Positions 22,125 through 47,825 of a stretch of DNA of 64,000 nucleotides are shown in pieces. The translations under genes and the position numbers were made by a program. Each line of letters opens with the position of its first letter. The first letter of the stretch is position 1. The notes beneath the pieces are model-generated. The model did not search any database. It worked only from the letters and a program-made list of their open reading frames with translations, and was not told the DNA's origin. Source of the stretch: Candidatus Poribacteria bacterium (GTDB lineage Bacteria; Poribacteria; WGA-4E; WGA-3G); the NCBI GenBank assembly GCA_022824835.1, contig JAJDZB010000074.1, forward strand, positions 13,260-77,259, written 5' to 3'.

Positions 22125-22741
22125 GGTTGTGTTCCGAGTTGTAACAGTGGTTTGTTATAGGATGAATCAAAGGTGTAAACGGGTTTTCCCCATTTCAATA
22201 GTGTCTGTGCAAATTCTAATGTTTTACTACCTTCTGCGGCATGCGCGATTAATATCTTATTTGCCAATGCTGCGACGAAATGATTACGTTTTCCAGCCCT
22301 TGTTGCATTCTGCTGAGGTGCATTATGGAATATGGATAGGATTAAGAGTCTATCTTGAGATAAGGATTCTTTCCATTCTGGCTTAATTCGCATAGTTTCA
22401 ATACTCCGAGCGGGGCAATTAATAATCGGTTGTGAACCGCGTAGAAGGACACGCAAGCACTCCTTTTCAATAGGTGAATGAAATCCGCCAACTGTTGCAA
22501 CACCATTATTTCTAAAATGGTGTGCTAAGTCGTGCGCGTTTAGGATTATCTCACCGGGACATTTGCTGGAACAGAAGATTGCCCATAAATCTGCAGTTTC
22601 TGTCATGTTAGACGCATTTGGTAATAGTTCTATATTTCCACGCGTCCATATCGTTTCTGGTGTATCATCCTTCAGGTATGCCTGTATGTATGATGGAAAG
22701 TTTTTGTCTGTTTGCGAAATGCGTTGGATTGGTTGTGTCAC
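22106..22741 (-). CDS. DprA/Smf-family Rossmann-fold domain protein (short form, 211 aa)
   Basis: ..GVATVGGFHSPIEKECLRVLLRG..RNHFVAALANKILIAHAAEGSKTLEFAQTLLKWGKPVYTF matches the DprA recombination-mediator core (..SGLA.GID..AH..; ..vvVEA...SGsL.TA..A...gr.VfA). Its 3' end overlaps the convergent cytochrome gene by 19 bp. Confidence 0.5.
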   Translation of the reverse strand: MTQPIQRISQTDKNFPSYIQAYLKDDTPETIWTRGNIELLPNASNMTETADLWAIFCSSKCPGEIILNAHDLAHHFRNNGVATVGGFHSPIEKECLRVLLRGSQPIINCPARSIETMRIKPEWKESLSQDRLLILSIFHNAPQQNATRAGKRNHFVAALANKILIAHAAEGSKTLEFAQTLLKWGKPVYTFDSSYNKPLLQLGTQPYQFGS

Positions 22742-23340: not shown

Positions 23341-23619
23341 TTATCCTACATCAGAATAAAGTTGGATCTGATTCTCAAGTTTTTTCATCAGAAAACCTAA
23401 ATCGTCAACTGTAAAACTATTTAATCTTCCGTTTCTCAGTTGCGTCATTTTGTAGCGGCTGATTTTCAAGCAATTCGCAGCGTCCTTTTGTGTTATTCCT
23501 TGTTCCGCAATTAAGGTATTGATCTCATAAGCCAATTTTGCTTTTGCTAATCTTTCATCCGGTAAAGGAAGTCCTAAATCTTTAAATATATTGCCTGAAC
23601 TTAGTGTATAGTTTGCCAT
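23341..23619 (-). CDS. XRE-family HTH DNA-binding protein (HigA-like antitoxin paralog)
   Basis: 92 aa; ..ITQKDAANCLKISRYKMTQLRNGR.. is an HTH. About 80% identical to the antitoxin at 25728-26027. Confidence 0.7.
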   Translation of the reverse strand: MANYTLSSGNIFKDLGLPLPDERLAKAKLAYEINTLIAEQGITQKDAANCLKISRYKMTQLRNGRLNSFTVDDLGFLMKKLENQIQLYSDVG

Positions 23620-23667
23620 ATCTCAATTCTCCAAACCCGGACTATATTTGATCATGAAGTAGAACGT

Positions 23668-23871
23668 CTATTCTTCCCAAAAGTTTTCTATGGGGAAAGG
23701 TTTGCTGCGTCCTTTGTATACTAACTTAACCCGTATTGTTCCAGATCGGCGCGGCGGTGGCGGCGTTATAGCAACGTCCCAGTTAAGAAGGTCATCTGCA
23801 TCATAGTCCAAAAATGCAAAATGTTGTTTCTGTTTTTCTTTAGATGTATTTGTCGGTTGTGTGTTTTTCAT
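23668..23871 (-). CDS. Small hypothetical protein (67 aa), paralog of 25346-25573
   Basis: Lys/Gln-rich N-terminus and conserved ..SGTIRVKLVYKG..P.PIENFWEE C-terminus. I do not recognise any domain. RBS-like GGAG lies upstream. Confidence 0.45.
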   Translation of the reverse strand: MKNTQPTNTSKEKQKQHFAFLDYDADDLLNWDVAITPPPPRRSGTIRVKLVYKGRSKPFPIENFWEE

Positions 23872-23944: not shown

Positions 23945-25324
23945 CTAATCAGTTACCCTTCGGGTGTATTTGGTACCTCTCCCTTTTCCTATCATAGACA
24001 ATAACCCTTTATTTATCATATCCTTTAGTTCTCCATAAGCAATCCGGTGTGAGACTTGATTAATCTTCATGTATTCTCTATTTGTGATTTCTCCGTGTTT
24101 TTGTGCATAGGAAAAAGCGTTCTTTTGACGTTCGTTCAACTGTTCGGAAATGTCATCAATTTCTACAATAGTGGTCTCCTTGATAGGTGAATCAAAGATG
24201 ACTTTGGTTTCAAGTGGGTGTAGTTCGTAGCGCGGCTCTGTGTTTTCCCACTCCTTACACAATCTTTGCATCATTTTGATTCCAGACCCGTACTTTTCAA
24301 TAAAACCGACATCATACATCAATTGAGTCAAAATAGGATTTACCGGCTTGTGCCTAGGTTTATCTGGACTAACCCCTTCCGGAAAGGTGCCGGGACTAAT
24401 AATTTCAACTCGGTCATCAAATATGAACACCCGAACATCAGCAGGTTCTTGATAATTTCGATGAATTAACCCGTTGATAATCCCTTCTCGCAAGGCATCA
24501 AGCGGGTACTCAAACTTATCGTCTCGTTGAAAACTTTTTGAAGTCCGAAAACTAAGTAAGCGAATATTTTTTCTTATGAACTCCTCAGTAGCATTTACAA
24601 TTTCCCAGAGTGTTCCTGAGCAATCAAGTCGATCAATGACTGGATGGGTGACAGATGTCCCCTTGAATCTGACAACTCGCAACTGTGCGTTGTGAAAGAA
24701 TCTTTGAGGGTGTTTTCCAAAAAAGAGAATCCCTGCATGGGTCAGTGTTTCTTCTTCGCTAATACAGTTAATGTTTCTCAACAAGTCTGGTACAGTCATG
24801 TTTTGTGGTTGTGCTACGTTGCGACTCGCTTCTCTACGTGTTAGGTACCATTGGATCTTTTGTTCATCTATATCATGATTTTTGGCACTAACGACTGAGA
24901 GTTGATCCCATGTTTGTCCAACAGACTTAAGGTGCATCTGTGCAATCTCCTGCGGAGACATGACTCGGTTACTATTTCCGACTCTCTTGTAACATGTCCC
25001 TTTAACAGAGACAGGTTTTATTTGAGACTCCGTAATTTGTACTAACAGAACTGATTTTCCTTCAATGTTAGCAGATTCAAGTTCCATAACTACCCGCGGA
25101 TCAATGGCTTGAGATATCCGGTTTGTTATATCAGTTAATGTCTCTTTGCATAAGGTAATTCCTTTGATTTCTTTCTTATCGGAAACACCGATGAGAATGG
25201 AACCACCATTAGTATTGGCAAATGCAGCAGCGGTCTCAATAGTTTCTTGATCGCATCTCTCTTTAAATTCGGTCGTGCTATTTTCACCTTGCACAATGCG
25301 TTGTTTGAGTTCTGTAGTTATCAT
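23945..25324 (-). CDS. AlbA_2 (divergent AAA / Schlafen-like) + HATPase_c_4 + wHTH protein, the so-called putative transcriptional regulator / RecG-C-like family
   Basis: The N-terminus ..TEFKERCDQETIETAAAFANTNGGSILIGVSDKKEI.. is AlbA_2-like. The C-terminal ..RNYQEPADVRVFIFDDRVEIISPG.. is HATPase-like. Confidence 0.6.
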   Translation of the reverse strand: MITTELKQRIVQGENSTTEFKERCDQETIETAAAFANTNGGSILIGVSDKKEIKGITLCKETLTDITNRISQAIDPRVVMELESANIEGKSVLLVQITESQIKPVSVKGTCYKRVGNSNRVMSPQEIAQMHLKSVGQTWDQLSVVSAKNHDIDEQKIQWYLTRREASRNVAQPQNMTVPDLLRNINCISEEETLTHAGILFFGKHPQRFFHNAQLRVVRFKGTSVTHPVIDRLDCSGTLWEIVNATEEFIRKNIRLLSFRTSKSFQRDDKFEYPLDALREGIINGLIHRNYQEPADVRVFIFDDRVEIISPGTFPEGVSPDKPRHKPVNPILTQLMYDVGFIEKYGSGIKMMQRLCKEWENTEPRYELHPLETKVIFDSPIKETTIVEIDDISEQLNERQKNAFSYAQKHGEITNREYMKINQVSHRIAYGELKDMINKGLLSMIGKGRGTKYTRRVTD

Positions 25325-25727: not shown

Positions 25728-26027
25728 TTAACAGGTTGTCGTGCATTCATCAGACCGAAACGAATAAAGTCGTATCCGTTTTTCAAGTTTTTCTAATAGA
25801 GAACGTAAGCAAACAACGGTAAAGCAATTTAGTCTGCCGTTTCTTATTTGTGTCATCTTGTATTGACTAATTCTTAAACAATCCGCAGCTTCCTTTTGAG
25901 TCATTCCTTGTTCGGCAATTAAAGAATTGATCTCATAAGCCAATTTTGCTTTTGCTAATCTCTCATCAGGTGAAGGAAGTTCTAAATCTTTAAATACATT
26001 GCCTGAACTTAGAGTATAGTTTGCCAT
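25728..26027 (-). CDS. XRE-family HTH antitoxin (HigA-like)
   Basis: It starts 5 bp after the upstream toxin gene and carries an HTH motif. The C-terminal 20 aa diverge from the paralog, which could reflect a frameshift or simple divergence. Confidence 0.7.
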   Translation of the reverse strand: MANYTLSSGNVFKDLELPSPDERLAKAKLAYEINSLIAEQGMTQKEAADCLRISQYKMTQIRNGRLNCFTVVCLRSLLEKLEKRIRLYSFRSDECTTTC

Positions 26028-26031: not shown

Positions 26032-26397
26032 TTATTTCCTTTCTGCTAAGTCTTGAGCAATTTTCAAGCGACGTCTGATAATATCTATTTCTTGTCTCGG
26101 TGTTTGAATGCCCTTTTTGGATTTCTTCTGAAACGCATGTAACACGTATATTTTCTCGTTGATTTTAGTTGTGTATATCGATCTATAGGTATTAGTCCTG
26201 AAAGTACTTCGGATTTCCATGACACCGGTAAATCCCTTTAAGGGTTTGGCTTTAGGGTGTTTATCACCTTCTTGTGCAACATATAGCGCGTATCCCACTT
26301 CATCTTGGACTTCAGGCGGAAACTCTTTTAAATCATCATGAGATGAACCAACCCAAACTAATTCTTTTATCTCATGTTCCAGTTCGGTTTCTTTCAT
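26032..26397 (-). CDS. Gp49-like / HigB-type RelE/ParE-superfamily toxin
   Basis: 121 aa. ..IYVLHAFQKKSKKGIQTPRQEIDIIRRRLKIAQ.. matches the conserved C-terminus of the Gp49/HigB family. Toxin-first gene order. Confidence 0.7.
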   Translation of the reverse strand: MKETELEHEIKELVWVGSSHDDLKEFPPEVQDEVGYALYVAQEGDKHPKAKPLKGFTGVMEIRSTFRTNTYRSIYTTKINEKIYVLHAFQKKSKKGIQTPRQEIDIIRRRLKIAQDLAERK

Positions 26398-26584
26398 ACC
26401 GAATCCTTCAATTTAGTAGAGAGATGCTGTGTCTTTTCGGTATAATTATAACGGAAAATCGGTAATTGTGCAAACGATTTCAATTGTAAGGGTGTGTAAA
26501 GTTTTTGTCACTCTATTTGTCTGAACCAGGATTTTCAGGATTTTGAGATTTGACCAGGATAAGACTCCCTCGATTAGATGAAAC

Positions 26585-26722
26585 GGGTGTGTAAGTATTC
26601 TGTCACCTTTTTTCATAAGAGACGGCACCCGGAGAGTGCCTACTACTATTAAGAGCTTATGAAATTCTAAAATTGATACTTTAGTGACAAAAAGTTTACA
26701 CACCCAATTGTAAAGGTGTGTA
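26585..26722. repeat. MITE family D, full copy with both inverted termini
   Basis: GGGTGTGTAAGTATTCTGTCACC...GGCACCCGGAGAGTGCC...GTGACAAAAAGTTTACACACCC. Confidence 0.75.
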
Positions 26723-26750
26723 AAGTTTTTGTCACTAGTAGACAGTCCAG

Positions 26751-26850
26751 ACTAAAAAAGTAGGTCGGGTAGAGGAACGAAACCCGACATGAAACCACAT
26801 ACAATAAGCAAAGTCGGGTTTCGCTTCGCTCTACCCATAAATCAACGATG
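26751..26850. repeat. Palindromic repeat family B (..AGTCCAGACTAAA..GTAGGTCGGGTAGAGGAACGAAACCCGACA..), also at 17296-17396
   Basis: Direct comparison of the two loci. Contains the hairpin GTCGGGTTTCG/CGAAACCCGAC. Confidence 0.6.
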
Positions 26851-26945
26851 TGAATGCGCGTATGGCATTCATCGGGTATAAACTTAAGAAAACTCAGAAG
26901 ATCTGATGAATCTCTCTGAATCCTTATGGTTATACGGGTTGTCTT

Positions 26946-27068
26946 CTCTTCAGTCCCGTAGGGACGATATGTCATGCAACGGTATTTATAAACATATCGT
27001 CCCTACAGGACTAAAGATACCGTGTTCAACGTGATCTATAAACATATCGTCCCTACGGGACTAAAGAG
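26946..27068. repeat. Cluster of three REP-like hairpin units (TATAAACATATCGTCCCTACGGGACTAAAGAG) in mixed orientation
   Basis: Copies at 18963, 26946-27068 and 34853-34974. Units are separated by only 12-16 nt and some are inverted, so this is not a CRISPR array. Confidence 0.75.
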
Positions 27069-27149: not shown

Positions 27150-30100
27150 TCAATTTCCCAACCCCATACGATACTTGATGTCGTAGTTGATGATAAAGTC
27201 TAATTCCTCGTCTGTAAACCCGTAGTGTTGTGCAAGCACACGGTCAATTTTGTCTATGATATGCTTGGAGTGACGCGGAAAAAACTCATCATAAACTACT
27301 TTGCCAGTAGTTTTGTAATTGGTTTCCTTGCGATTTGCATGATTACGATAGTCTTTCATTAGTTTTTTGGTTATTTCGGACAATTCAATCATCTTTATCT
27401 GATTCAGACTTTCAGGGTTAAAGGAGAAATTGATGATTTCTCTTATATTGAGATGTCGACAATCGGAGGATATAATAAACCACCAATAAAACAAAGAACT
27501 GTTGAGAAAGCAGCAAACTGCAAGGGCATGTTCTTCTTTACTGAAGCGTAAATCCTTTATTTGTAGTGATTGTTTTTTTCCGTCTCGTTCGTTCCAAAAG
27601 TATGGTACAAAATCGGTAGCACGAATCCAATATTGGGGGGAATTGTGAAAATGGCAGGCGAATTTTCCAGTCTTAAAACTCAAAAACTGTTTTTTTGTAT
27701 TCTTGATTTTTCTTACAATGCTTTTCCCAGTATCATCTGCTATCTTGGGAAATATGCCTTTAATGCAAATATCTGTTATGTCTTCATAAGTTATACCTTG
27801 AAACAGAGTGGAACGAGTTTCTGAAAACCATCTGTTATATTGCGTGGCGTAAAGTGTTGCTATATCCAGACTCTTTTCTTCTTTAGTGATAAAAATAGTA
27901 GCACGTATATGTTGCAGATCGTCAAAGAGTTTTCCCGGTCTATCATCAAAATTAGCAAACCAACTTATCCTATTTGGTGATTTGAAAAGGGACTGTGCTG
28001 GTATCATGCGATCAGTACAGACCAGAGGCAGTTGAACGATCATTCCAACTTGTCCTTTGCTTAAATCAATAGATCTCTCAATAGTCATTGCATACAAATT
28101 TCCGCATTTTTCGGTCATGTATCCTTTTAATGTGTACTGTTGCTTAACCTTGCTATACTCAACATAAGGCGGATTACCTATAATCACATCAAACCCATCC
28201 TCTTGCAGAATTCCGTAAAACGCGATAAACCAGTGGAAAGGTTTGTGTGAATTTAGCCACTTTTCGTAATCAGGTTGTTTGTTCAGATCAACGTCGTGTA
28301 CGCCGGCCAAGTATTCGTTGAGTTCATCTTCTAATACCTGAAGCCTACTTTGCAAATTCAGTTTGTCGGCAGGTTTCACATCACCGCCTAACGTTGTTTG
28401 TTGTCTGCGAAACTCTACAAATAGTTGCTTAACGTCCTCTGCCTTTTCTTTGATGCGTTCCATTGTATTGTCAAAGTCAAGCCTGCCAGAAATCGATTCT
28501 TCTATCTCGTTGTATGTTGCAAAACCGACAAGCGTATTGCCTGCCTGAATGTTAAAGTCAATGTCGGGTAAAGGTTCAATCTGTTTTACATCTTCAATCT
28601 GTGCTACCATTTTAAGGAAGAGGCGCAGCTTGCAAATCTCAATTGCTTCCTCCATAATGTCTACACCGTAGAGGTTGTTAATGATAATAGACTTAAGCAC
28701 AAAATATTCTCGGTTGGGATGCTGGGCGATGCGGTCAAGGGTTTCGCGAAAGTCTTTGTATTTGCGGGAGGGTCGCGATTCGGAGATCGCTCCTACCTGA
28801 TTTGGTCGCGATTCGGAGATCGCTCCTACCTGCTCTGGTCGCGATTCGGAGATCGCTCCTACCTCGTCAAGGAAGACTTGCATACGGTCAAGGCATGCCT
28901 CGTAAAGCGGTTCAAGGATGTTTAGTGCGGCAAAGAGGAATGCGCCGGATCCGCATGTCGGGTCAAGCACTGTCACTTGCGTGATGGCTTTCCAGAAGGC
29001 ACGGAGTAGTTCTGGTCCCTCACAGCTTTCTATGACATCCTGCGCAAATTGACCGATATTGAGGTTATAGGTTATTAGATCGTTGATGTTGTCAATCTCT
29101 CCGTTTGCAAGTTTGCTGCGGACGGTATCGTGACGTTGCCGTCGTGCAGCTACCTCACGCCAAATTTCTGTGGGTAGGGCAATCTCATCAACTCCATCAG
29201 GTGCACGTTCATTCCACTTTGTGCGTTCAGATACATTATCAATTCCGATAGCAATTTCCGCTGGTAAAGGTAATTCAACACCTTTTTTAATTGCATCGTA
29301 GATATAGCGATCCGGGTCTTTTTGTAGGAGTTTCCAAACTGATGTATCACCTTCAAAAGCGATTTTGCATGATTTCTTTGCTGCATCAAAAAGAAATGGA
29401 ATGATGGTATTCTTGCTGATGTATTCCGTTATGTCCTCTTTGGTATAGTATGCACCCATCTGTTTCTGGTTGATGTATTTCTCAAAGATGTAGCCAAGCA
29501 CATCAGGGTTAATCTCTTTATCGTTTTTGAGTGGTCGGTCATCAAGATGCCAATCGTATTGTTCAAAGAAGGCAAAAAGTTTCTCAAATGCTGTGTCAGG
29601 GATTTCAATGTTCTGACCATGCAGTGTCTCAATTTCGTGTTTTTGAAAGATGCCGCCGTTGAGGTAAGGGATTTTACCGAGCAATCTTCTCATTTCAGGG
29701 GTACGTTCATCCTCTGGTTTGGCAAATCCTTCAAAGAAAAGCGGACAAAGGAATTCTTTGTAGTATAGATCCGTGCCGTTTCTTTTGGTCTCAGTAAGTT
29801 TGGTTTGCAAATATTTATCGTTTTTGTTCAGAAAGCTTTTCTTTTGGATGAAGTAGATGAACATGAGGCGGTTGAGCATCACCGATACATACCACTTTTG
29901 CATCTCTTCATCGGGAATGCCGCTGAGGAATTCGAGGAATGCGTCATGCTCTTTTTTGAAACGGTCATAAAACTTTTTGGTGACCTTTTCAGCAAAAAAC
30001 GCTTTCCCGACGCGTTCAATCACACCAAAAAGTCCGATTTCTTCTTCCTCATCTAAACTAAAAGCTATGTTTTGCAGTTTTTGGATCAGCGAATCACCGG

Positions 30101-30473
30101 ACTGCCAAGTTTCGTAGCGGCGTTCACGGCATGCGTCCGGTCTCCCCTGTTGACGTTTGACCCACTGCCATATTTGTATGGTTTTTTCAGCATTCGTATA
30201 GATGATAAAGTTTTCATGTGAGGCTTTTGCGACCTGTCTTTGAATTTTACGACGGGTTGCATAATCTGGAAAGGGTTGTTCTTCTGTCATCTGTGGACAT
30301 TCATAGACTACCATACCGCGTTTTTCAGCAAGTGCTGTGAGAACATATTTGGTTTCATCTACGATAACCGGGAGTGTTTGAGAATGATTATCCCAACCGA
30401 GAACTTGTGTAAAGAGATCCTCAAATTCAGATTCTCGGAGGTATTGGCGTGTTTCTTGAGGGGTAAATTGCAT
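27150..30473 (-). CDS. Large Eco57I/PglX/DrmMI-type N6-adenine DNA methyltransferase (1107 aa) with N-terminal and C-terminal extra domains
   Basis: SAM motif I VLDPTCGSGAFLFAAL and catalytic motif IV GNPPYV; about 480 aa precede them and ~350 aa follow. An in-frame 33-bp x3 repeat encodes (VGAISESRPxQ)x3 in the linker. Confidence 0.75.
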   Translation of the reverse strand: MQFTPQETRQYLRESEFEDLFTQVLGWDNHSQTLPVIVDETKYVLTALAEKRGMVVYECPQMTEEQPFPDYATRRKIQRQVAKASHENFIIYTNAEKTIQIWQWVKRQQGRPDACRERRYETWQSGDSLIQKLQNIAFSLDEEEEIGLFGVIERVGKAFFAEKVTKKFYDRFKKEHDAFLEFLSGIPDEEMQKWYVSVMLNRLMFIYFIQKKSFLNKNDKYLQTKLTETKRNGTDLYYKEFLCPLFFEGFAKPEDERTPEMRRLLGKIPYLNGGIFQKHEIETLHGQNIEIPDTAFEKLFAFFEQYDWHLDDRPLKNDKEINPDVLGYIFEKYINQKQMGAYYTKEDITEYISKNTIIPFLFDAAKKSCKIAFEGDTSVWKLLQKDPDRYIYDAIKKGVELPLPAEIAIGIDNVSERTKWNERAPDGVDEIALPTEIWREVAARRQRHDTVRSKLANGEIDNINDLITYNLNIGQFAQDVIESCEGPELLRAFWKAITQVTVLDPTCGSGAFLFAALNILEPLYEACLDRMQVFLDEVGAISESRPEQVGAISESRPNQVGAISESRPSRKYKDFRETLDRIAQHPNREYFVLKSIIINNLYGVDIMEEAIEICKLRLFLKMVAQIEDVKQIEPLPDIDFNIQAGNTLVGFATYNEIEESISGRLDFDNTMERIKEKAEDVKQLFVEFRRQQTTLGGDVKPADKLNLQSRLQVLEDELNEYLAGVHDVDLNKQPDYEKWLNSHKPFHWFIAFYGILQEDGFDVIIGNPPYVEYSKVKQQYTLKGYMTEKCGNLYAMTIERSIDLSKGQVGMIVQLPLVCTDRMIPAQSLFKSPNRISWFANFDDRPGKLFDDLQHIRATIFITKEEKSLDIATLYATQYNRWFSETRSTLFQGITYEDITDICIKGIFPKIADDTGKSIVRKIKNTKKQFLSFKTGKFACHFHNSPQYWIRATDFVPYFWNERDGKKQSLQIKDLRFSKEEHALAVCCFLNSSLFYWWFIISSDCRHLNIREIINFSFNPESLNQIKMIELSEITKKLMKDYRNHANRKETNYKTTGKVVYDEFFPRHSKHIIDKIDRVLAQHYGFTDEELDFIINYDIKYRMGLGN
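28771..28869. repeat. Perfect in-frame 33-bp tandem repeat x3 inside the methyltransferase gene
   Basis: ggtcgcgattcggagatcgctcctacctg occurs 3 times with 1-3 nt variation at unit ends. Confidence 0.85.
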
Positions 30474-30644
30474 AGGTGTTCCTATAGGTTGTCTGATTTG
30501 ATGAGTAATTCGTCATTCGTGAGATGACCGATGACAAGTTTAGGTTTTTTCATTTAATACCTCTGGCAAAAGGGATTATGTTAATGTCAATTATACATAA
30601 CTTAGATATGAAATTCAAGGTTTTACTACTCGTATATTTGATAT

Positions 30645-30812
30645 AACGTGAGTTTGATAATTAAATGCAATATTCATTGTAGGTTGGGTTGAGGCACGCC
30701 AATCAAATATTAACTGGCAACATGTATTGCTCTATAATGGGTCAAGATGTTGGGTTTCGTTCCTCAACCCAACCTACGTAAGTTATTTGTTCTGATTTAT
30801 CAAACTCACGTT
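30645..30812. mobile_element. MITE family A (TIR AACGTGAGTTTGATAA ... TTATCAAACTCACGTT), inserted between the helicase and methyltransferase genes
   Basis: Full copies with both termini at 30645-30812, 37447-37599, 38751-38883, 43683-43804 and 57703-57822. A partial copy lies at 47745-47822. Confidence 0.75.
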
Positions 30813-30901
30813 GATATAGTAACTTTTCTTTTATTTCTGTATATTGTGTGGTATACTTTTAAGTATGCTTTTATAATCATTTGTGAAAACATAACGAGGA
30901 A

Positions 30902-31108
30902 ATGACCATGCAAACTACCATTATTGAGAAACTTCAGTATCTTTCACCGAAGGACTACGAAGAAGTGCTAAATTTTATTGATTCCTTGTTAACAAAAAAG
31001 GTTTCAGAAGAAAAAAAGAAACCGAATTTGGAGTGGATTGGTGGCTTAATAGAATATCGAGGGCAGTACACAGCACTTGAACTTCAGAAGAAGGCATCAA
31101 ACAGATAG
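30902..31108 (+). CDS. Small hypothetical protein (68 aa), possibly antitoxin-like (resembles the DUF2281-type fold: ..IEKLQYLSPKDYEEVLNFIDSLL..)
   Basis: An ORF with ATG, on the strand opposite to the flanking large genes. The similarity is a weak recollection only. Confidence 0.3.
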   Translation: MTMQTTIIEKLQYLSPKDYEEVLNFIDSLLTKKVSEEKKKPNLEWIGGLIEYRGQYTALELQKKASNR

Positions 31109-31152
31109 GGGAAGACAAGAACCTGCCGATGTGTTGTAAGGAAATCCCCTCA

Positions 31153-34100
31153 TTAGGAAGAAAGACCTAATGAACACACGATTTTGGGTTCTTGCGTTTG
31201 GATTTCTTCTTCAACAATGCAGAGTCGTCCATCGTCCCATAAACCGATCACTAATTCAGCAAGTTTTTCGTTGGAAATACCAGAGCGAAGTTGTCGATTA
31301 AGAATATCTTTTGCCACTGGACGTAGCGGGTAACGATAGATATTTTCTATTACTTGTTTGAGTTCTGGTATTGCGAAGAGAGTCCCTTCTACTTCTGATG
31401 CATAATCTTTTAATCGTTCATAAGTGCGGAAACGTGCTCCAGTTGATCGTCCGAGTTGTCCACCAATTGATCTGCCCTCAGAGACAATGAGTTTTGCTGC
31501 TTCCTCTACAAGGTGATGGTGTTCCTCCAAAGGTTGTAGTGCTTCTGTATCAGGTTTGCATTCTGCTGCTTGTAGAATAGTGAACTGTGATTCTGTTACA
31601 CTCTCTCCATTTTTGTTTATCCATGCCAGCGCGTCGTTATCATCTCCGGTTCTGATATATACCAATGCACCTTCAGGTTGTGTATCTGTGGGTGAGTGCG
31701 GTTTAGTTGAATAAACAACAGATGGGAGTTTGGTGATGATTTTCTCTAAATCTGGGTTTTCGGTAATAGCGTTTTTCCATATCTGGTAGGCGTGAGATGC
31801 AAGGTCTACGTCATTATCCATATCGTCATCAAGTAGTCCAGCATTTTCATGATACAAGTTAACGATTGCTTGGTTTCCATTCTCCCCGTCATCTTCAAAA
31901 AAAGCTTCGTCTGTTCCGACAACCTCAGCGTTTTCTTGTAGACGTGCACGTACGCGTCCGCGTAGATGTATGATACGTTCAACACCTTGTGCGGGTAAAA
32001 AGGAGTAGCACAGTATTTCTTCTGCAGTTTGACCGATTCTGTCAACGCGTCCAGCGCGTTGGACTAAACGTATAATTGCCCACGGCAGATCGTAGTTTAC
32101 GACTATTGCACAGTCCTGTAGATTCTGACCTTCACTCAGAACATCCGTGCTGATGAGGAGGCGCAATTCATCTTCTTTTCTGAAAGCCCCTTTTTTGTTA
32201 TTGCTAATAGGACTGAATCGGGTTGCCAACCACGTAGGATTAGCAGAATCACCGGTAGCTGCTGCTAAGTGAGTCAAACCGCGTTTATCTAATGCTGCTT
32301 TTAGATAATGTACAGTATCAGCGAATTGGGTGAAAACTAAAACCTTTGTATCGGGATGTGTTTGCGTTAATAGTTCCTCAAGAGCGTTAAGTTTGGCATC
32401 TTTTGACTCATCCCAATCACCGTATAGTTGTAGAATCTGGATCAGTGCTTCTGCGTCTTGCGTAAGTTGTTTCTTTAGGATCGGTAAGAATAGATCAGAA
32501 CGGATCCACTTAAAACGGGTGCTGTACTTTGTCAAATAGATTTGATAAATAGCAGCAGCGCGTTCTTTGTATTTTTCAATTGTATACAAATTGGAATGGG
32601 AATCGGTTGTATCAATTAATTCGTCATCCTCATCATCTGAAGTAGCTGAAATGAGATTGACATCATCGTTGTCTGTATCGTTAAATCGTGTATCAAGCAT
32701 AGATGCATCAAGTCCACCGATTGGAAATGGTTCGCCGTTTTCAATTGCATATAAGAAGATATAGTTTCGTAGAATGTGTCGATCAACAGACTGTAAAAAT
32801 GCTTTTCCACTACTTTCAAGCCGTTTGAATAGATTAGTTCGGCAAAATCCCATCAACCGTTTTCCACCACGTGATAGGTCTTGTAGTCGTTCTTTTTCAG
32901 TTTCGGTAGGTGGTTCTGCTGGTGCATCATCAATGTAATTTGCCAGTTCATAACGTGCCAAGTTAAGTCTGTTTATGATATTCACTACATTTTCTGAATA
33001 TAATTGTGCATAAGTGTCGTCAGGATTTTTGTCGTCAATTGTGAACGCAACTGTTTTGGGTGCGCGTGTTGGGAAGTAGGATCGTGTTCCACCTGGAAAC
33101 AGTAGGTATTTTCTTTTTGAGTTGGTATCTTCTTCAGCATAGTTTTGCATGATGAAGCTGCGTGTTCTTCGGACAAGGTATCGCCGCATCAGTTCTCTCC
33201 AATCGTCAATTTCTTCGCTTTTTTCAAACGCTGCGAGGGTGTTTGTCCCGCATTGATGATCACTAAGGAATTTTAGTTCACCAACTTTATTGATGCAATG
33301 GTCTGGACGTATACCGAGGTCTTCAGTTTCATCAACAAAAAGGCGGAGTTGATTTGAGAGATCAAGGAATGATTTGTTGTATGGTGTGGCAGAGAGGAGA
33401 ATGACTTTACTTTCATTTTGCTGGATATAGTCTTGAATTGCTCGGTAACGTTTGCCTTCTCGGTTTCTAAGATTGTGGCTTTCATCAATCATGACTAATC
33501 TGTAACGTCTGAGATCGGGGAGTTCGTTTTGCACTTGACTTATTGAAAGCACTTTTCCACGTAAACGGTATTCTTCACGATAATATTCCCACATCTGGAC
33601 AAGGTTCTTTGGGCAGATGATAAGTGTTTCAAGATCATCCTTGTCTTCCATTATCCTTGCCAGTGCTGTTCCCATAAGTGTTTTACCCAGACCGACAACA
33701 TCACCGATAAGTACACCGTTACGTTTGTTTAGATGGTGTGCTGCGATTTTGACAGCAGCTGTTTGAAAGTCAAAAAGTTTGTCTTCAAAATCGCTTGGTA
33801 TACTGAATTCATTCAAGCCTGCGCGTGCTTCATGTGAAAGGTGATATGCCATTTTTATGTAGATATGATAGGGTGGAATCAACTCCTCACGTGCCCAACT
33901 CTGCTCAATGATTTCGGCTAATTCCTTAGATATATCTATGCACCATCTATCGTTCCATCTATCTTCGAACCAGTTTTGTAATTTCTGACAAGCGTCAGCA
34001 TCAAGCACATCAATGTTGAGTTCTCCCTGTTTTGAGAGTCCAGCGAGTGTTAGGTTACTACTGCCAAGGTAACCCACAATTGGTGCAGCAAGGTCTTGTC

Positions 34101-34539
34101 TGTGTAGTAGGTAAAGTTTGGCATGCAGTGGATGTTGTAGAAATAGTTTGACTTTTACTTTTTCGTTCCGAATTTGGTGTGCTAATTGGCGTAGACCGAT
34201 TTCGTCTTCACGTGTGGGGATTCCGATGGTTAATTGTTCCCGAAATTCCTCTGCTAACTTCTTTTTGATGCGGAGTGCAGTTTGATTATCTAATCTGTCT
34301 GTCTCTTTAATAACGTGCATGGCATGTCGTAGTTTTTCATTGGGGTTTTGATGCATTCCGACGAGTAAACGGCAGCATGCCTCATCTCCACCGTGCCAAT
34401 TTTCAATGTAATTTGCGAGTCTTTTCCAGCCTCTGAGGTTAAAATAACCCACGCAAAAATCTGCATGGGTAGAGGCTTCAAGGGTTTGTTGTAGTGCTTG
34501 AAGGAGCGGTTGGTCAATATTGTCAAAGATTCTGGGCAT
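31153..34539 (-). CDS. PLD-family (HKD) nuclease domain fused to an SNF2/SF2 helicase (1128 aa)
   Basis: The N-terminal ..ADFCVGYFNLRGW..HPLHAKLYLLHRQD..GYLGSSNLT is an HxK...GSxN PLD motif. Helicase motif I is GDVVGLGKT, motif II MIDESHNLRN, and motif VI QRAGRVDRIGQ. Confidence 0.75.
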   Translation of the reverse strand: MPRIFDNIDQPLLQALQQTLEASTHADFCVGYFNLRGWKRLANYIENWHGGDEACCRLLVGMHQNPNEKLRHAMHVIKETDRLDNQTALRIKKKLAEEFREQLTIGIPTREDEIGLRQLAHQIRNEKVKVKLFLQHPLHAKLYLLHRQDLAAPIVGYLGSSNLTLAGLSKQGELNIDVLDADACQKLQNWFEDRWNDRWCIDISKELAEIIEQSWAREELIPPYHIYIKMAYHLSHEARAGLNEFSIPSDFEDKLFDFQTAAVKIAAHHLNKRNGVLIGDVVGLGKTLMGTALARIMEDKDDLETLIICPKNLVQMWEYYREEYRLRGKVLSISQVQNELPDLRRYRLVMIDESHNLRNREGKRYRAIQDYIQQNESKVILLSATPYNKSFLDLSNQLRLFVDETEDLGIRPDHCINKVGELKFLSDHQCGTNTLAAFEKSEEIDDWRELMRRYLVRRTRSFIMQNYAEEDTNSKRKYLLFPGGTRSYFPTRAPKTVAFTIDDKNPDDTYAQLYSENVVNIINRLNLARYELANYIDDAPAEPPTETEKERLQDLSRGGKRLMGFCRTNLFKRLESSGKAFLQSVDRHILRNYIFLYAIENGEPFPIGGLDASMLDTRFNDTDNDDVNLISATSDDEDDELIDTTDSHSNLYTIEKYKERAAAIYQIYLTKYSTRFKWIRSDLFLPILKKQLTQDAEALIQILQLYGDWDESKDAKLNALEELLTQTHPDTKVLVFTQFADTVHYLKAALDKRGLTHLAAATGDSANPTWLATRFSPISNNKKGAFRKEDELRLLISTDVLSEGQNLQDCAIVVNYDLPWAIIRLVQRAGRVDRIGQTAEEILCYSFLPAQGVERIIHLRGRVRARLQENAEVVGTDEAFFEDDGENGNQAIVNLYHENAGLLDDDMDNDVDLASHAYQIWKNAITENPDLEKIITKLPSVVYSTKPHSPTDTQPEGALVYIRTGDDNDALAWINKNGESVTESQFTILQAAECKPDTEALQPLEEHHHLVEEAAKLIVSEGRSIGGQLGRSTGARFRTYERLKDYASEVEGTLFAIPELKQVIENIYRYPLRPVAKDILNRQLRSGISNEKLAELVIGLWDDGRLCIVEEEIQTQEPKIVCSLGLSS

Positions 34540-34852: not shown

Positions 34853-34974
34853 CCCTCTTTAGTCCCGTAGGGACGATATGTCATGCGACGGTATTTATAA
34901 ACATATCGTCCCTACGGGACTAAAGAGGAGGCGGGACATGTTTTCTATAAACATATCGTCCCTACGGGACTGAG
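34853..34974. repeat. REP-like hairpin cluster (three units, mixed orientation)
   Basis: Same units as at 26946-27068. Confidence 0.75.
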
Positions 34975-35231
34975 GTTACTATTAGATTGTGTTTGCCTTT
35001 TTAAATTGACGCATAAGGTGGTTGTAGAAAGAAGCACAATCAAGGATGAATGTGCTACAAAGAGAGGCACAATCTAACAGAATGTGCTACTTTGTTGCAG
35101 GCCTGTATCTTCTCAGAAGTCGTTGGATACGTTGGGGTAGACTGATAAAAGACATGATCAGTGTAAAAGATAAGGCTTGAAATCAGAGTTATACTGAATT
35201 CAAGCCTTATGAAGACAATCTATCTATGTAA

Positions 35232-36014
35232 TCAACGGGATTTAATGTTGCCCCATGTCGTGGTGAGTTTTGATTCGGGTTCTACAGACAGAAATTCACC
35301 ATCTTTTACCTGATTGATTTCGCTTTCAGATAATGCGCGTGCAAAAATGTAATAATCATCTAACAACCCTTGATACCATCTATCATTTTTGTGGTGTCCA
35401 ATTCCTGCGTTCACTCCCCATTCAGCAGATAGTTTTCCACTTCCCTTAACAGAGTGCGTTTCTTTACCATCAATATAGGTTTTCGCATCTCCACTGTCAC
35501 TATCATAGGTGCCTGCGAAATGAACCCATTCACCTGCATCAATTACGGGGCCCGGATTGATATTAAAGACAGTCGTATTTGTCTCGTTTCGGTGAAAAAA
35601 ACGGAATCCGCCAGGACGAATTTCCATGTGATAAAGTCCACTTTCAATTGTTGTACCAATGGCATCAAGCAATGTTTGCGGATTGGGGGAACCGTTATGG
35701 TTAACCCAGACTGCTAATGTAAATCCGTCTACTGGACCGTTCTCAAATTCCGGACCATTCATATTAACCCATATATTGGTATCTAAAGCGATGGCTTTTC
35801 CATAGACACCTTTTTCCCATGTAGCATTTCCCTGAACTTCGCCATCGTTCCCGTTTTTTGATCCATCTTTAACCGTTTTACTTTCTTCATCAAAGCTATA
35901 GTAAACGGACAGTGTCGGGTCATTTAAATCAGCCTGAACGGAAAATACACATGTCCCCAAAAATATCAATACGGTTAGAAAGATGGGTAGTTTCTTACTA
36001 ATGTTGATATACAT
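35232..36014 (-). CDS. Secreted LamG-like (concanavalin-A-like lectin/glucanase) domain protein
   Basis: Signal peptide; LSVYYSFDE...DGS.NGNDG..G.A.W..G..GKAIALD fits the pattern of a Laminin_G_3-type domain. C-terminus ..VEPESKLTTTWGNIKSR. Confidence 0.6.
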   Translation of the reverse strand: MYINISKKLPIFLTVLIFLGTCVFSVQADLNDPTLSVYYSFDEESKTVKDGSKNGNDGEVQGNATWEKGVYGKAIALDTNIWVNMNGPEFENGPVDGFTLAVWVNHNGSPNPQTLLDAIGTTIESGLYHMEIRPGGFRFFHRNETNTTVFNINPGPVIDAGEWVHFAGTYDSDSGDAKTYIDGKETHSVKGSGKLSAEWGVNAGIGHHKNDRWYQGLLDDYYIFARALSESEINQVKDGEFLSVEPESKLTTTWGNIKSR

Positions 36015-36036
36015 TTTCTACTCCTATATGTGTAAT

Positions 36037-36837
36037 TTAACGGGATTTAATATTTCCCCATGTGGTTGAGAGTTTATCTTGTGGTTCAACTGGTGTTACA
36101 AAGGCGCCTTCCATAATTTGCTGTATTTCATCTGCAGACACCGCGCGTGCAAAGATGTAATATTCATCTAGCATTCCGTTAAACCACCGAGCGTTCTTAT
36201 GGTGTCCGATTCCTGCCGAAACTCCCCAATTGGCTGCGAGTTCTCCCCCACCGACAGCACTGTGGGTTTCCTCACCATCAACATAAGTCTTTATCTCACC
36301 ACTTTCGGTATCATAAGTTCCTGCAAAATGAACCCACTTATTTGCCTCTAATACTGGACCAGGATTTATATTAAAGACAGTAGTATTCGTATGGTTTCTA
36401 TGGAAGAATCGGAATCCGCCAGGACGAATTTCCATGTGGAATAGTCCACTTCCATGGTCAGTACCGATTGCATCCAGGAGTGTCTGAGGATCAGATGAGC
36501 CTGTATGATTAACCCAAGTGGCTATTGTGAATCCGTCACTGGGAAGATTTTGAAATTCGGGACCGTTCATGTCAATCCACGAATCTGTTTCTAAGACAAT
36601 CGCTTTCCCCATTACACCGTCTGCTCTATTGACGTTGCCGACTATGGTTCCATCATTACCACTTAGGGAACCGTCAACGACAGTTTCACCTTCTCCATCA
36701 AAACTATAGTAGACAGAAAGTGTCTCATCACTCAGGTCAGCATTGACAGTGAATGTGAAAACAGATAGCAGGGCAGCTACTACAGTCAAGATTTGAAACG
36801 CTCTCATTAATTCAAAACGCATTTTATTATTCTCCAA
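36037..36837 (-). CDS. Secreted LamG-like domain protein, a paralog about 60% identical to 35232-36014
   Basis: Same architecture. C-terminus ..VEPQDKLSTTWGNIKSR. Confidence 0.6.
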   Translation of the reverse strand: MENNKMRFELMRAFQILTVVAALLSVFTFTVNADLSDETLSVYYSFDGEGETVVDGSLSGNDGTIVGNVNRADGVMGKAIVLETDSWIDMNGPEFQNLPSDGFTIATWVNHTGSSDPQTLLDAIGTDHGSGLFHMEIRPGGFRFFHRNHTNTTVFNINPGPVLEANKWVHFAGTYDTESGEIKTYVDGEETHSAVGGGELAANWGVSAGIGHHKNARWFNGMLDEYYIFARAVSADEIQQIMEGAFVTPVEPQDKLSTTWGNIKSR

Positions 36838-37446: not shown

Positions 37447-37599
37447 AATGTGAGTTTGATAATTAAATGCAATATTTGTTGTAGGTCGGGTAGAGGCACG
37501 AAACCCGACATGTATTGCTCTATAATGGGTCAAGATGTTGGGTTTCGTGCCTCAACCCAACCTACGTAGGTATTTGTTCTGATTTATCAAACTCACGTT
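37447..37599. mobile_element. MITE family A full copy
   Basis: aatgtgagtttgataattaaatgcaatatt...ttatcaaactcacgtt, about 90% identical to the 30645-30812 copy. Confidence 0.75.
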
Positions 37600-38750: not shown

Positions 38751-38883
38751 TAGTACGTATAGCGTGGGTTTGATAAATCAGATTTTCCCAGACATGTATT
38801 GCTCTATAATGGGTCAAGATGTTGGGTTTCGTGCCTCTACCCAACCTACGTAAGTTATTTGTTTGATTTATCAAACTCACGTA
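38751..38883. mobile_element. MITE family A copy
   Basis: agcgtgggtttgataa...ttatcaaactcacgta. Confidence 0.7.
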
Positions 38884-38908: not shown

Positions 38909-39256
38909 CTATAGCAGATCATCGTGCGGTTCTACTTGTCTAACGCCAATAGCTGGATTTAGACGAGAATGATGCATTAGCCAATAAGCAACAGTAACTA
39001 TTATTCCGCCAAAAAGTGTGGCAATTAACCATATCTCAGCCTGAACGAAAATAGCACTTCCCCTCTGCTTTGCATCCCGATATATGCCGATAGCAAAAGA
39101 GATATGTACAATTGCTACGAATATAATAAAGAAAAAACTCCAAAATCCTAATATAATTAACTCAAAGAATGCTAATCCCATGCCCATGATAATTCCTCCG
39201 TTTTGTTCTGGTATATGTTTAGATATTTCGTTTACATGTGTGTTGGTGAACTCCAC
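38909..39256 (-). CDS. Small integral membrane protein (3 TM helices)
   Basis: 115 aa and hydrophobic (..LAFFELIILGFWSFFFIIFVAIVHISFAIGIY.. ..IWLIATLFGGIIVTVAYWLM..). It lies directly downstream of the helicase gene, and the two genes may overlap. Confidence 0.5.
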   Translation of the reverse strand: MEFTNTHVNEISKHIPEQNGGIIMGMGLAFFELIILGFWSFFFIIFVAIVHISFAIGIYRDAKQRGSAIFVQAEIWLIATLFGGIIVTVAYWLMHHSRLNPAIGVRQVEPHDDLL

Positions 39257-42200
39257 TTCTCCATATAGTTAGACGGCATTTCGTGGATAAACATAGATGT
39301 TACCTGTCCTCGGTCATTGAAACGGTATACAGCAGAAGATAGATAGAGTTGTTTCTGTGCACGCGTCATGCCTACATAGAACAGACGACGTTCCTCTTCA
39401 AGTTCCTCCAATGTCAGGCTACTTCTACCTATTGGAAAATTCCCATTCTCCATCCCTATTATAAAGACAACCGGAAATTCTGTGCCTTTTGCAGCATGTA
39501 ATGTCATGAGTGTGAGTTGCTCTGTTTTATTATCAAGTTCATCAAAACTGGTCAGTAGTTTCTGGTAATCTAAGAAATCGATCAGCCGATGTCCGTATCC
39601 CGCTTTTTCAAAGTTTAGGACAACATTCAGGAATCGCGACTTGTGTTCAATCCAATCACTGTCCTCCTTGTCAACAAGGACATCAGACTTCCTAAGCAAA
39701 TTTAAGAATTCAGTTACCTGTTCTTTCTCTGTCTGTTCAAGAGGCACATCATCAGGAAAGACATTATGATTGACTTTCACATACCTTTTCGCAGCATTTA
39801 GATATGCTTCAATTTCAGGTGATATTTCCGCTTCATCAATATCAGAGGTTTTAGCAAGGATGCCGAGCCCAACCCAGGGTAAGAATTCAGTGAGTGATTT
39901 TAGCTGCTGTTTCTGTGTGTCAATTCTGATGAGTTCCTGGAAGATTTTGCGGTTGACTTCTACATCCTCCGGTGCACTATGTAGCTGTTCGTATCCGATT
40001 CCGAATTTTTCAGCGAGTGCCTGAATTCCGCGTCGCTGTCTTGGGAAAAGCCTTCGCGCTGTAACCAACGTGTCATAATGCGGATTCGGTAATCCTCGTT
40101 TCAGGTGTTCTTGAAGAACACGTTCAAGTATAGGATTGTCATAATTCGCGACATTGTGTCCGATGAGGATACGATCTTGAATGAAACGACAAAATTCGGG
40201 AAGCACCATTTCAATACTCGGGCAATTTTTAACGGTCTCTTCATCTATACGGTGTATTCGGGTAGTTTCTCTCGGTATGTGTCCACCCGGGGGTTTTACT
40301 AATCTATAGTATCGTTCTATTCCATCCCCAACAGTATTGAGACGTTGTGCGGCTATCTCAACGATGTTCGCATATCTCGTATCAACGCCAGTTGTTTCTA
40401 AATCGTATATGACCATATCTGCCATGTTTGGTGATTCGAAACGACTCAATAGACGTTGACAGAGCCTAAAGGCATCAATGCTGCGAATACCGTCAGATTG
40501 AAGTTGAAGTGTACTGATACCCTCTGCAGCGGTTGTTCCGATTATTATAATGCGCGAATCTGCTGATGTTTCGTCCAACTCACCGAAATCTCCAATCAAG
40601 AGATTGATTCCATTTTCGCTCAGATGTGGCTTACTTCTGTCCGTATCCTTCGGTAATAGTTGTATCTCTACATTCTTATTCAGATAGGTTTTGAAGGTCT
40701 GATGTATGATACTTGCTGCACAGTATTCATCTACACCGTAGCTTGCAGTAATTGTAATGGGTTCATCTCGATTAAGCGCGCTATACAGTACATCTTGTAT
40801 AAGGGAGACATTCTGCATTTCGGGTTGTCTTTCAATTGTTACCAGTTCTTTTTGACGGTATGGCGAACGAAAGATATTCAATGTAACAAAGAGTTTTTGA
40901 GCGATTTTGTCTATTTTCTCTTTCTCTATTCCGTCTGATAGATTTTTCAGTTCCTGCCAAAATCGATGGATATTACGTCTCGTTAATGGACCAACATCCT
41001 CTGGGTATTCCTCAATGTTCTCCAACAGTTCTACTAAAGTTATGTTATTTCGTAATGCCAACCACTTGAGGCGTACCCACGTAAGATCATCAATTCGTTT
41101 TTCAGGAAAGTTGATCGCATTCTCAAGGTCTTGGGGGAGTTGCCACTCAATGAAACGGAGATAGGAGTATATACCTTTACTGATTTCTTCATCAAGAGAG
41201 TTTGTAGGTCGGATACGTTGAAATTTTATCTGCTGCTTGAGCAATTCCTCTGCTAAAACATCCGCAAGTTTATGTGTTCGGTAGAAGATGGCGATATCGC
41301 GATAGGAGACACCCCGATGCATAATCAGATTTCGGATGATTTTTATGATATTTTGTGCTTCCTCAGTTGCTGTACTGAACGTATAGTGAAATATATTCCG
41401 TCCGACGTCTTTGTGTGTTTTAAGCGTGTGCTGTTTTTGTCTTTCCGTATTCCTACCGATGACCTCTTCTGCAGCCCGTAGTATTTTCTCACTACACCGA
41501 TAGTGTTCATCCAATTCAACGATTTCGGGTGAGAAATCATCTATAAAATGTTCAATATACTGCGGATTAGATCCGCGCCAACTGTAAATTGATTGATCAG
41601 CATCCGCAACTACCATCAGATTATTGTTCGGGGATGCACTGATGCGTTTAAGTAACGCGTACTGGACACTATTCACATCGTGGTATTCATCCACAAGGAT
41701 ATAAGAGATGTTTTTGTGGTAATCGTTTTGTATTTCTGATTCCTGTTTGAAAAGTTCAACCGTCTTAACGAGAAGATCGTCAAAGTCAAGTGCATTGTAT
41801 TCTGTGAGTTTGTGCTGATATGCACTGATTGCCCGCTTTATGTTTTCTGCTGCATCTGGATCATCTATTTCTGCGATTATGTCAGGATCAATTTCCAAGT
41901 CATCAGTTATATTTTTAAGTTTACATTTTGCGTCACTGATGATATTTCGCAATCGCCATGAAGGATAGATGCGTGAGTTAAGGTGCAATTCGCGTGCCGC
42001 CTCTTCCAAGATTTCGTCTTGAATTTCTTGATCAAAGATGGCGAAGTTTTCACTGAGCCCTATCCGTTGTGCGTGTTTTCGTAGTACCTTTACACAGAAT
42101 GCATGAAAGGTGCTGACCTTTATGTCAGATCCGTGTGGTTCACCGATTTCATTGTTAACCCGTTCCCGCATCTCTTCTGCTGCTTTATTCGTGAAGGTGA

Positions 42201-43682: not shown

Positions 43683-43804
43683 AACGTGAGTTTGATAAAT
43701 CAGATTTCCGTATCCGGTGCGGTTAGGAAACCGCACCTACCGGGTCTGTGTGAGTAATATTTTGGGTTAAATGAAGTCTATATACCTGTTATCAAACTCA
43801 CGTT
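43683..43804. mobile_element. MITE family A copy carrying the GGTTAGGAAACCGCACCTACCGG module
   Basis: TIRs aacgtgagtttgataa / ttatcaaactcacgtt. Confidence 0.7.
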
Positions 43805-47733: not shown

Positions 47734-47825
47734 TTTTTCTCAGGGTTTTCGGGTAGGTTTCGGTTCGGTTAGGAAACCGAACCTACCGGCACGGGGAAAA
47801 TCTGATTTATCAAACTCACGTTATA

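Follow-up and report, generated by a model that had tools for sequence, protein, structure and literature searches.

A pair of adjacent genes in Candidatus Poribacteria probably represents a conserved operon for ATP-dependent, methylation-based restriction, in which a build resembling that of the Type ISP and Type III enzymes is split between two proteins: a methyltransferase (MT) that would provide specificity and self-marking, and a helicase-nuclease (HEL) that would restrict. The pair lies in a stretch of 64,000 nucleotides, here called the window (contig JAJDZB010000074.1 of assembly GCA_022824835.1, positions 13,260 to 77,259). HEL (31153-34539; 1128 aa), which joins an HKD or phospholipase D (PLD) nuclease and an SNF2 helicase to a C-terminal domain specific to its family, is the predicted restriction and translocase subunit. 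MT (27150-30473; 1107 aa), an Eco57I/MmeI/PglX-like gamma-class N6-adenine methyltransferase with a target-recognition domain, is the predicted specificity and modification subunit. Both are encoded on the minus strand, to which all of their domain coordinates below refer, and HEL precedes MT by 679 bp. What we observed directly is the linkage of the two genes, their domain content, the conservation of their motifs, a variable recognition region, the fold of the MT N-terminal domain and the absence of other partners. A preliminary description of the locus had read it as a minimal ATP-dependent translocating restriction system, which is still the best reading; the two open reading frames (ORFs), their motifs, the gap and the two small elements that it had placed in the gap were borne out by ORF, Pfam and motif checks.

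The case that HEL and MT belong together is carried by reciprocal synteny. Full-length homologues of HEL, 48-98% identical, occur in more than ten phyla; in 47 genome loci anchored on such homologues, an MT homologue comes right after HEL, in the same orientation, in about 40, the exceptions being mostly contig ends. For the converse comparison we took 79 metagenome loci anchored on MT, 61 of them with enough upstream sequence to be informative: HEL stands directly upstream of MT on the same strand in 49 of the 61, and elsewhere in the locus in another three. The pairs among the genome loci come from Poribacteria, Desulfobacterota, Myxococcota, Chloroflexota, Gemmatimonadota, Acidobacteriota, Alphaproteobacteria, Bacteroidota, Clostridia, Verrucomicrobiota and others. 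Outside Poribacteria the spacing between the genes is -4 to +15 bp, and the copies on Pelobacter and Rhodococcus plasmids adjoin or overlap each other. This reciprocity amounts to operon-grade linkage, and the comparison of loci indicates that HEL and MT are one functional module, a conserved operon and not a chance neighbourhood. The preliminary description had proposed a single module and had named the adjacency of PLD-SNF2 fusions and Eco57I-like methyltransferases as its check; that adjacency is kept in more than ten phyla. In one 5.94-Mb Poribacteria genome (loci L135 and L136) there are at least four MT paralogs, one with its own HEL at an 11-nt overlap and another standing alone next to the nuo operon. 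A single HEL might work with several MTs.

Linkage of this kind bears on the idea that the two genes are independent neighbours, a Type IIG enzyme next to a SauUSI-like Type IV enzyme directed against modified DNA, each working alone. HEL does have the SauUSI layout of a PLD domain, a superfamily 2 (SF2) helicase and an extra C-terminal domain, and defence genes cluster, this neighbourhood being rich in toxin–antitoxin (TA) and defence-like genes. However, synteny is reciprocal in more than ten phyla with ORFs that abut or overlap, no known reader domain matches the C-terminal domain of HEL in fold, and a modification-dependent nuclease beside an adenine methylase would be toxic to its own host unless it ignored N6-methyladenine (m6A). 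We therefore regard two independent genes as very unlikely.

HEL consists of three parts. Residues 1-215 (33895-34539) form a single HKD/PLD nuclease domain (PLDc_2, RE_NgoFVII) with the signature H138-x-K140...G159-S-S-N162, read in the translation as LHAKLYL...GSSNLT. Residues 256-880 (31900-33774) are an SNF2-type SF2 motor (SNF2-rel_dom, ResIII and Helicase_C in Pfam) that carries motifs I (GLGKT), II (DESH), III, V and VI (QRAGRVDRIGQ), with an acidic, variable insert around residues 621-660. Residues 881-1128 (31156-31899) are a C-terminal domain exclusive to this architecture, which falls into 819 clusters at 50% identity; it had no structural match, including to any known reader fold, and is a candidate interface to MT. 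Aligning 42 homologues showed conservation of 90% or more in the HKD motif and in SNF2 motifs I-VI; the protein as a whole is evenly conserved, at 58-70% per domain. Because HEL holds one HKD copy, its active site would be formed in a dimer, as analogy with MtsD, SauUSI and BfiI suggests. A search against PDB chains gave generic matches to the SF2 C-lobe only; the top PADLOC match, at 195 bits, was 'C3a139 HKD+Snf2', a cluster beside type III CRISPR loci.

The intact HKD motif also speaks to a mainly epigenetic role, in which the SNF2 ATPase would load or activate the methyltransferase, as MtsA does for MtsC and SNF2 in Dnmt5, and so produce a regulatory methylation pattern. ATP-dependent activation of methylation has precedent, and the locus is chromosomal, stable and present in several copies in Poribacteria. 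Yet a conserved nuclease motif argues for DNA cutting, and defence systems are typically marked by a recognition domain that is hypervariable, by carriage on plasmids and by guest genes of TA or defence type, which leaves a chiefly regulatory function highly improbable.

MT has the make-up of a Type IIG enzyme: similarity over its full length, gamma-class N6-adenine motifs and a variable C-terminal recognition region. The PADLOC Type IIG model derived from REBASE (PDLC03628) aligns residues 5-1104 to profile positions 5-1095 of 1100, at 1108 bits, and Pfam assigns Eco57I, MmeI_Mtase and DUF7814; a search against PDB chains found nothing. A helical spacer (DUF7814) and the methyltransferase core occupy residues 166-800 (28074-29978), with motif I DPTCGSGAF and motif IV NPPY, found in the translation as LDPTCGSGAFL and GNPPY. 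Residues 801-1060 (27294-28073) are a hypervariable target-recognition region, in which mean pairwise identity is 26% compared with 55-70% in the spacer and core. At a syntenic Poribacteria locus (L002), HEL is 94% identical to that of the window and MT matches only over residues 1-792, so that the recognition region has been swapped while HEL stayed nearly the same. Just after methylase motif I, a 33-bp in-frame tandem repeat (28771-28864; 2.8 copies, 96% matches) encodes VGAISESRPxQ three times; only about five of 33 aligned MT homologues have residues in this stretch, which could be a contingency or length-variable loop.

The N-terminal domain of MT (residues 1-165, 29979-30473) is predicted to adopt a restriction endonuclease (REase)-like fold, closest to the nuclease domains of DrdV and BpuSI. 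A PD-(D/E)xK fold had been conjectured here; the REase fold was indeed predicted, but the canonical catalytic D...(D/E)xK is not conserved in the MT N-domains across the family, and we predict an inactive docking domain. All MTs paired with HEL have this domain in common, one of MmeI type among them. In Rhodococcus, the partner of a 40%-identical HEL is MmeI-type, with MmeI_hel, MmeI_Mtase, MmeI_TRD and MmeI_C, and its N-terminus is nevertheless the N-domain of the HEL pairs (F..LFI.ELGW ... HE.LIIF ... W.W). Stand-alone MmeI-family enzymes are described as carrying their nuclease at that N-terminal position. The domain thus tracks the presence of HEL and not the methylase subfamily. These comparisons lead us to infer an inactive docking module at the MT N-terminus and a nuclease supplied by HEL, which fits the even conservation of HEL, the hypervariability of MT residues 801-1060 and the swapped recognition region at the syntenic locus.

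The same domain is where the reading of MT as a self-contained Type IIG enzyme has to be judged. On that account MT would cut with its own N-terminal nuclease and HEL would be an auxiliary or backup effector, like the add-on nucleases around BREX. The end-to-end match to the Type IIG model, the likeness of the N-domain to the DrdV and BpuSI nucleases, the existence of solo MT copies and the frequency of auxiliary effectors in BREX-like loci are all in its favour. Against these stand the catalytic residues, which the family does not conserve, the appearance of the same N-domain in place of the native nuclease end on the HEL-paired Rhodococcus enzyme, and a linkage to HEL far tighter than would be expected of an optional add-on. 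On balance, a self-sufficient MT seems unlikely.

The split restriction system that we favour would work as follows. MT would be the 'Mod-like' subunit, its hypervariable C-terminal domain reading a short asymmetric site and its N6-adenine methyltransferase marking the host genome, while the N-domain, an REase fold minus the catalytic motif, would probably serve for docking. HEL would be the 'Res-like' subunit, two copies of which would bring single HKD halves together into one PLD nuclease site, with the SNF2 motor translocating on double-stranded DNA. MT bound at its site would recruit HEL, and DNA lacking the methyl mark would be cut. A DprA-like protein would be a frequent accessory, probably acting as a regulator, as a brake in the manner of an antitoxin, or as an activator of methylation.

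This third gene (22106-22741, minus strand, 211 aa) lies 4.4 kb downstream of MT and encodes only the Rossmann core of DprA (DNA_processg_A, PF02481; Pfam 5.9e-14). When 779 neighbouring ORFs from the 47 HEL-anchored loci were clustered, the DprA-like family, of 150-250 aa, was the sole further family shared across phyla. Its gene occurs in 21 of these loci, nine of them outside Poribacteria, and in 28 of the 38 MT-anchored loci that were informative. In every case it shares the strand of HEL and MT, and it either follows MT at a distance of -6 to about 6200 bp or immediately precedes HEL. The two-gene make-up given in the preliminary description stands for the pair, with a recurrent third gene lying beyond the limits that it had drawn. 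The protein also matches the PADLOC antitoxin models PsyrA and ShosA, the former in part (64 bits, profile positions 96-273 of 398). Through this partner, restriction–modification is tied to a family otherwise known from DNA uptake and antitoxins.

Between MT and the DprA-like gene the window holds guests, all on the minus strand. A Gp49/HigB-like toxin (26032-26397) and an HTH_37 protein (25728-26027) form a HigBA-like module; a Schlafen protein with AlbA_2 and HATPase_c_4 domains (23945-25324) matches PADLOC models associated with pAgo; and a second HTH_37 protein (23341-23619) forms, with a 67-aa ORF, a second HigBA-like module (23341-23871). Elsewhere this slot is filled by variable guests: DUF3800, PDC-M04B, DUF4238, an AbiEii-like AAA_21 with DUF4276, or HipA_2. 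The AlbA_2 and HATPase_c_4 protein follows MT in the window and in nine Poribacteria loci, and another AlbA_2-TPR protein does so in five more. In Nostoc punctiforme (L133, 13078-17103), the MT located after HEL has an AlbA_2 domain fused at its C-terminus, a hint that the protein is more than a guest; it may be a fourth component.

Given that HEL is seen with an Eco57I-type partner here and an MmeI-type partner in Rhodococcus, we entertain, tentatively, a broader possibility: HEL may be a 'plug-in' motor for any IIG/IIL-type methylase with a dead REase-fold docking domain, with the DprA-like protein and, in some lineages, the AlbA_2/Schlafen protein as integral regulators. Such regulators could act as a gate on the nuclease or boost methylation, in the way of MtsB in the MANTIS system or of DprA-like antitoxins towards helicase toxins. 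If this were true, the pair would found a distinct, unnamed and widespread defence family with a slot of its own in which guest defence and TA genes accumulate.

An orthologous HEL-MT pair is present on plasmid pSYSX of Synechocystis PCC 6803, a model cyanobacterium, and its methylase has already been studied, which the preliminary description had missed. Over the full length, HEL shares 51% identity with the helicase-related protein WP_011153866, and MT shares 48% with Slr6050 (WP_011153869, 1100 aa). The asymmetric motif GA(m6A)GGC has been tentatively assigned to Slr6050, a knockout of slr6050 could not be segregated, and the gene was concluded to be essential (Hagemann et al. 2018, PMC6105098), with no mention of the gene upstream of it. 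Failure to segregate would suit a protective methylase facing a cognate nuclease, and judging from orthology Slr6050 may protect against its HEL-type neighbour, a simple explanation for why slr6050 is undeletable. Directly after the Slr6050 locus, pSYSX carries a ubiquitin-like conjugation cassette (L131, 16924-19545) of ThiF E1, E2/UBC, multiubiquitin and DUF6527, which places the pSYSX pair in a defence island.

The searchable literature contains no mention of 'slr6047', the HEL ortholog, and our search of it found no named system of HKD-SNF2 protein, IIG-like methylase and DprA, only the C3a139 cluster and one passing mention of the pairing. The latter is a 'Type II RM CDS (Cj0031 homolog)' with a PLD and SNF helicase CDS immediately upstream, at inversion-targeted loci (Milman et al. 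2023, PMC9881135). The pairing there is recognizable by its domain architecture, and those loci may be of the same family; the pairing is neither named nor analysed in that work. As far as we have found, the three-gene make-up and the docking-domain logic have not been described before. We see in the locus an ordinary representative of a variant, widespread though unnamed, among restriction systems that depend on ATP and methylation; current tools would label it as a lone 'Type IIG' gene beside an unannotated helicase and so mask a widespread multi-gene system.

Several observations weigh against a split restriction system, or at least against parts of it. HEL is absent from nine of the 61 informative MT-anchored loci, and because of these loci and the solo paralog in Poribacteria, MT can exist alone, without HEL. 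The MT N-domain of the window retains D39, E50 and K51, and E87 is nearly invariant, so a non-canonical nuclease site may yet be present. Between roughly a quarter and a half of loci lack the DprA-like gene, which was also searched for and not found on plasmids pSYSX and pR1CP2, which carry HEL-MT loci. A transposable element and an antitoxin ORF lie between the genes in the window, where co-transcription is therefore not assured. The assignment of the Slr6050 motif is tentative (PMC6105098), and the essentiality of the gene could have another cause. In MANTIS, the nuclease activity of MtsD, the analogue of HEL, has not yet been reconstituted. Which protein cuts, how the proteins touch, what the DprA-like protein does, and HEL's ties to restriction and to MT are likewise what we infer from sequence and analogy.

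The gap between HEL and MT has its own history of insertions. In Poribacteria it is widened by PIN+DUF2281 or ParE-type TA pairs and small ORFs. In the window it holds a miniature inverted-repeat transposable element (MITE)-like insertion (30645-30812; 168 bp) with perfect 16-nt terminal inverted repeats, AACGTGAGTTTGATAA, and a DUF2281 antitoxin-like ORF on the opposite, plus strand (30902-31108; Pfam 5e-11). The PIN toxin partner of DUF2281 sits in the same gap in three Poribacteria loci (L004, L005 and L010) and is missing here; by this comparison the ORF, which had been noted earlier with its identity overlooked, is an orphan antitoxin, the remnant of a PIN+DUF2281 module inserted in the gap. 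In Synechocystis, the pSYSX gap contains a VapBC pair. The gap is thus a recurrent landing site for TA modules.

Beyond the gap, MITE ends of the same family number 12 in the window, against 0.08 expected by chance. They make up at least five paired, intergenic copies of 105-170 bp (30645-30812, 37447-37599, 38761-38883, 43683-43804 and 57703-57822) and solo ends at 47807 and 62511. As the preliminary description had noted, both spacers flanking the pair hold repeats: we found nearly identical repetitive extragenic palindrome (REP)-like hairpin arrays at 26946-27068 and 34854-34975, in the same order and orientation, each with one reverse and two forward copies of ACATATCGTCCCTACGGGACT and with stems GTCCCGTAGGGAC. 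A third, partial copy lies at 18973. The flanking arrays could mediate deletion or duplication of the HEL-MT pair. Two ORFs in the repeat-rich spacer (26446-26703 and 26667-26975) have no family matches and are probably spurious, and scanning the locus for promoters and terminators told us little, with 35 promoter-like sites versus 21.6 expected.

The locus had also been taken for a horizontally acquired island bounded by MITEs, a view that does not hold. The left third of the window is the EF-G/EF-Tu/L2/SecY/RpoA ribosomal supercluster, and its right side encodes MutL, TruD, WD40 proteins, a GH127 glycosidase and ABC exporters, which together make the HEL-MT locus chromosomal. Its nearest relatives are in Candidatus Poribacteria metagenome-assembled genomes, at up to 98% identity. 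Three of these loci (L002, L003 and L007) share two LamG genes and a UvrD-exonuclease upstream and a Schlafen-like gene downstream, and synteny in several Poribacteria argues against a recent island. Composition gives recent transfer no support either, GC content being unremarkable and not deviant, and the MITEs are no island borders, with copies scattered over 30-62 kb. No full-length HEL homologue was found in a phage collection, hence there is no sign of a phage-borne system.

Directly upstream of HEL, on the same minus strand, lies a tandem pair of Laminin_G_3 (concanavalin-like) genes (35232-36837) whose position is kept in related Poribacteria. Farther upstream, a UvrD/PcrA-type helicase (39232-42369, minus strand) has a DEDDh (RNase_T) exonuclease inserted at residues 653-810; it matches Gabija GajB models strongly, without an adjoining GajA.

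We then compared the pair with known defence systems. Among the window ORFs scanned (five in the ribosomal cluster and, from 19 to 62 kb, all of at least 90 aa apart from 61949-62401), none encodes DrmA, DrmB, DrmC, BrxC, PglZ, DUF499 or DUF3780, in agreement with the earlier statement that canonical DISARM and BREX partners are missing; nor do the 47 HEL-anchored loci contain a conserved cluster of DISARM, BREX or MANTIS partners. The profile check that had been proposed found Eco57I, PLDc_2, SNF2 and Helicase_C and no DISARM or BREX model above its cut-off. The NCBIfam DrmD model scores 126 bits on HEL (cut-off 610), the best PglX score for MT is 72 bits (cut-off 500), and PADLOC DrmMI matches MT partially at 61 bits, compared with 1108 for the Type IIG model. 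NF042964 ('phospholipD_antiphage'), which may represent MtsD, gives HEL 148 bits against a cut-off of 1100, and BrxHI/II and HmaA are further weak, partial PADLOC or NCBIfam matches. One could read these matches as traces of a degenerate or split DISARM, BREX or DUF499-centred MANTIS locus with its other genes elsewhere, the more so as MANTIS also combines an HKD-SF2 effector with an N6-adenine methylase. But all NCBIfam scores fall far below cut-off, the defining genes are absent from the scanned ORFs and from the conserved neighbours of the 47 loci, and MT is Eco57I/MmeI-type, not of the DUF1156 type that BR-system methylases carry. A split locus is, in our estimate, hardly credible.

Class 1 DISARM likewise brings together an SNF2 helicase, a PLD nuclease and a large N6-adenine methylase, but the pair lacks its defining core of DrmA (a YprA-like helicase) and DrmB (DUF1998), and its PLD domain is fused to SNF2. 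With the DrmD score below cut-off and the DrmMI match partial, we rejected class 1 DISARM, and with it the 'reduced DISARM-like' label used previously. BREX types 1-6 were rejected too, since BrxC/PglY and PglZ are absent and PglX is below cut-off. Type IIG and IIL enzymes (Eco57I, BpuSI, MmeI, DrdV and Cj0031) share with MT the order of REase-fold domain, helical spacer, methylase and recognition domain; MT differs in having no conserved D...(D/E)xK and in being nearly always accompanied by a separate helicase-nuclease.

PLD-SF2 fusion effectors are in fact known, in MANTIS/Gao_RL (MtsD) and in SauUSI, contrary to the earlier statement that known systems keep PLD and helicase separate. SauUSI has the domain order of HEL, a single HKD that implies a dimeric active site, and ATP-dependent cleavage. 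It works alone on modified cytosines, whereas HEL is tied to an adenine methylase and has a C-terminal domain without a reader-fold match; a SauUSI-like Type IV enzyme, a stand-alone PLD-helicase with a C-terminal reader of modified bases, was accordingly rejected. In PsyrTA, a DprA-like protein neutralizes a helicase toxin, and the third gene here matches PsyrA and ShosA through the DprA Rossmann core. It is, however, the core domain only, of 150-250 aa, and its partners are HEL and MT, not a RecQ-like protein or a phosphoribosyltransferase; with a partial PsyrA match and no adjoining RecQ-like (PsyrT) or phosphoribosyltransferase (ShosT) toxin, PsyrTA/ShosTA was rejected.

The closest characterized system is MANTIS/Gao_RL, a Type-2, DUF499-centred, BREX-related system of MtsA-D in which MtsD is an HKD-SF2 dimer resembling SauUSI. 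Both have an N6-adenine methyltransferase that sets specificity and a dimeric effector, predicted as such for HEL, with an N-terminal HKD/PLD domain and an SF2 ATPase. Beyond this effector architecture membership fails: the pair has neither the DUF499 AAA+ ATPase (MtsA) nor DUF3780 (MtsB), its methylase is Eco57I/MmeI-type with an N-terminal REase-like domain instead of a DUF1156-type MtsC, HEL has its own C-terminal domain, and the position of the small accessory is taken by a DprA-like gene. The pair would thus be a third way of building a methylation-guided PLD-helicase restriction machine, without the AAA+ loader that MANTIS needs.

In its logic, by contrast, HEL-MT is nearest to Type III and Type ISP, with different parts. 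Type ISP (LlaGI/LlaBIII) and Type III enzymes combine a nuclease, an SF2 motor and a methylase, gamma-class or Mod, with a recognition domain, act at a short asymmetric, hemimethylated site and rely on ATP-driven long-range communication; the same logic applies to HEL-MT, and the asymmetric GAAGGC motif of the ortholog Slr6050 fits it. Type ISP is one polypeptide, whereas two ORFs were found in the window and in all related loci, so we rejected membership of that type. HEL has an HKD domain, placed N-terminally, instead of an Mrr or PD-(D/E)xK nuclease, which in the Res subunit of Type III is C-terminal to the SF2 helicase, and its motor is SNF2-type. The gene order is helicase then methylase, and MT is Eco57I-type and not a beta-class Mod, which sets the pair apart from Type III as well.

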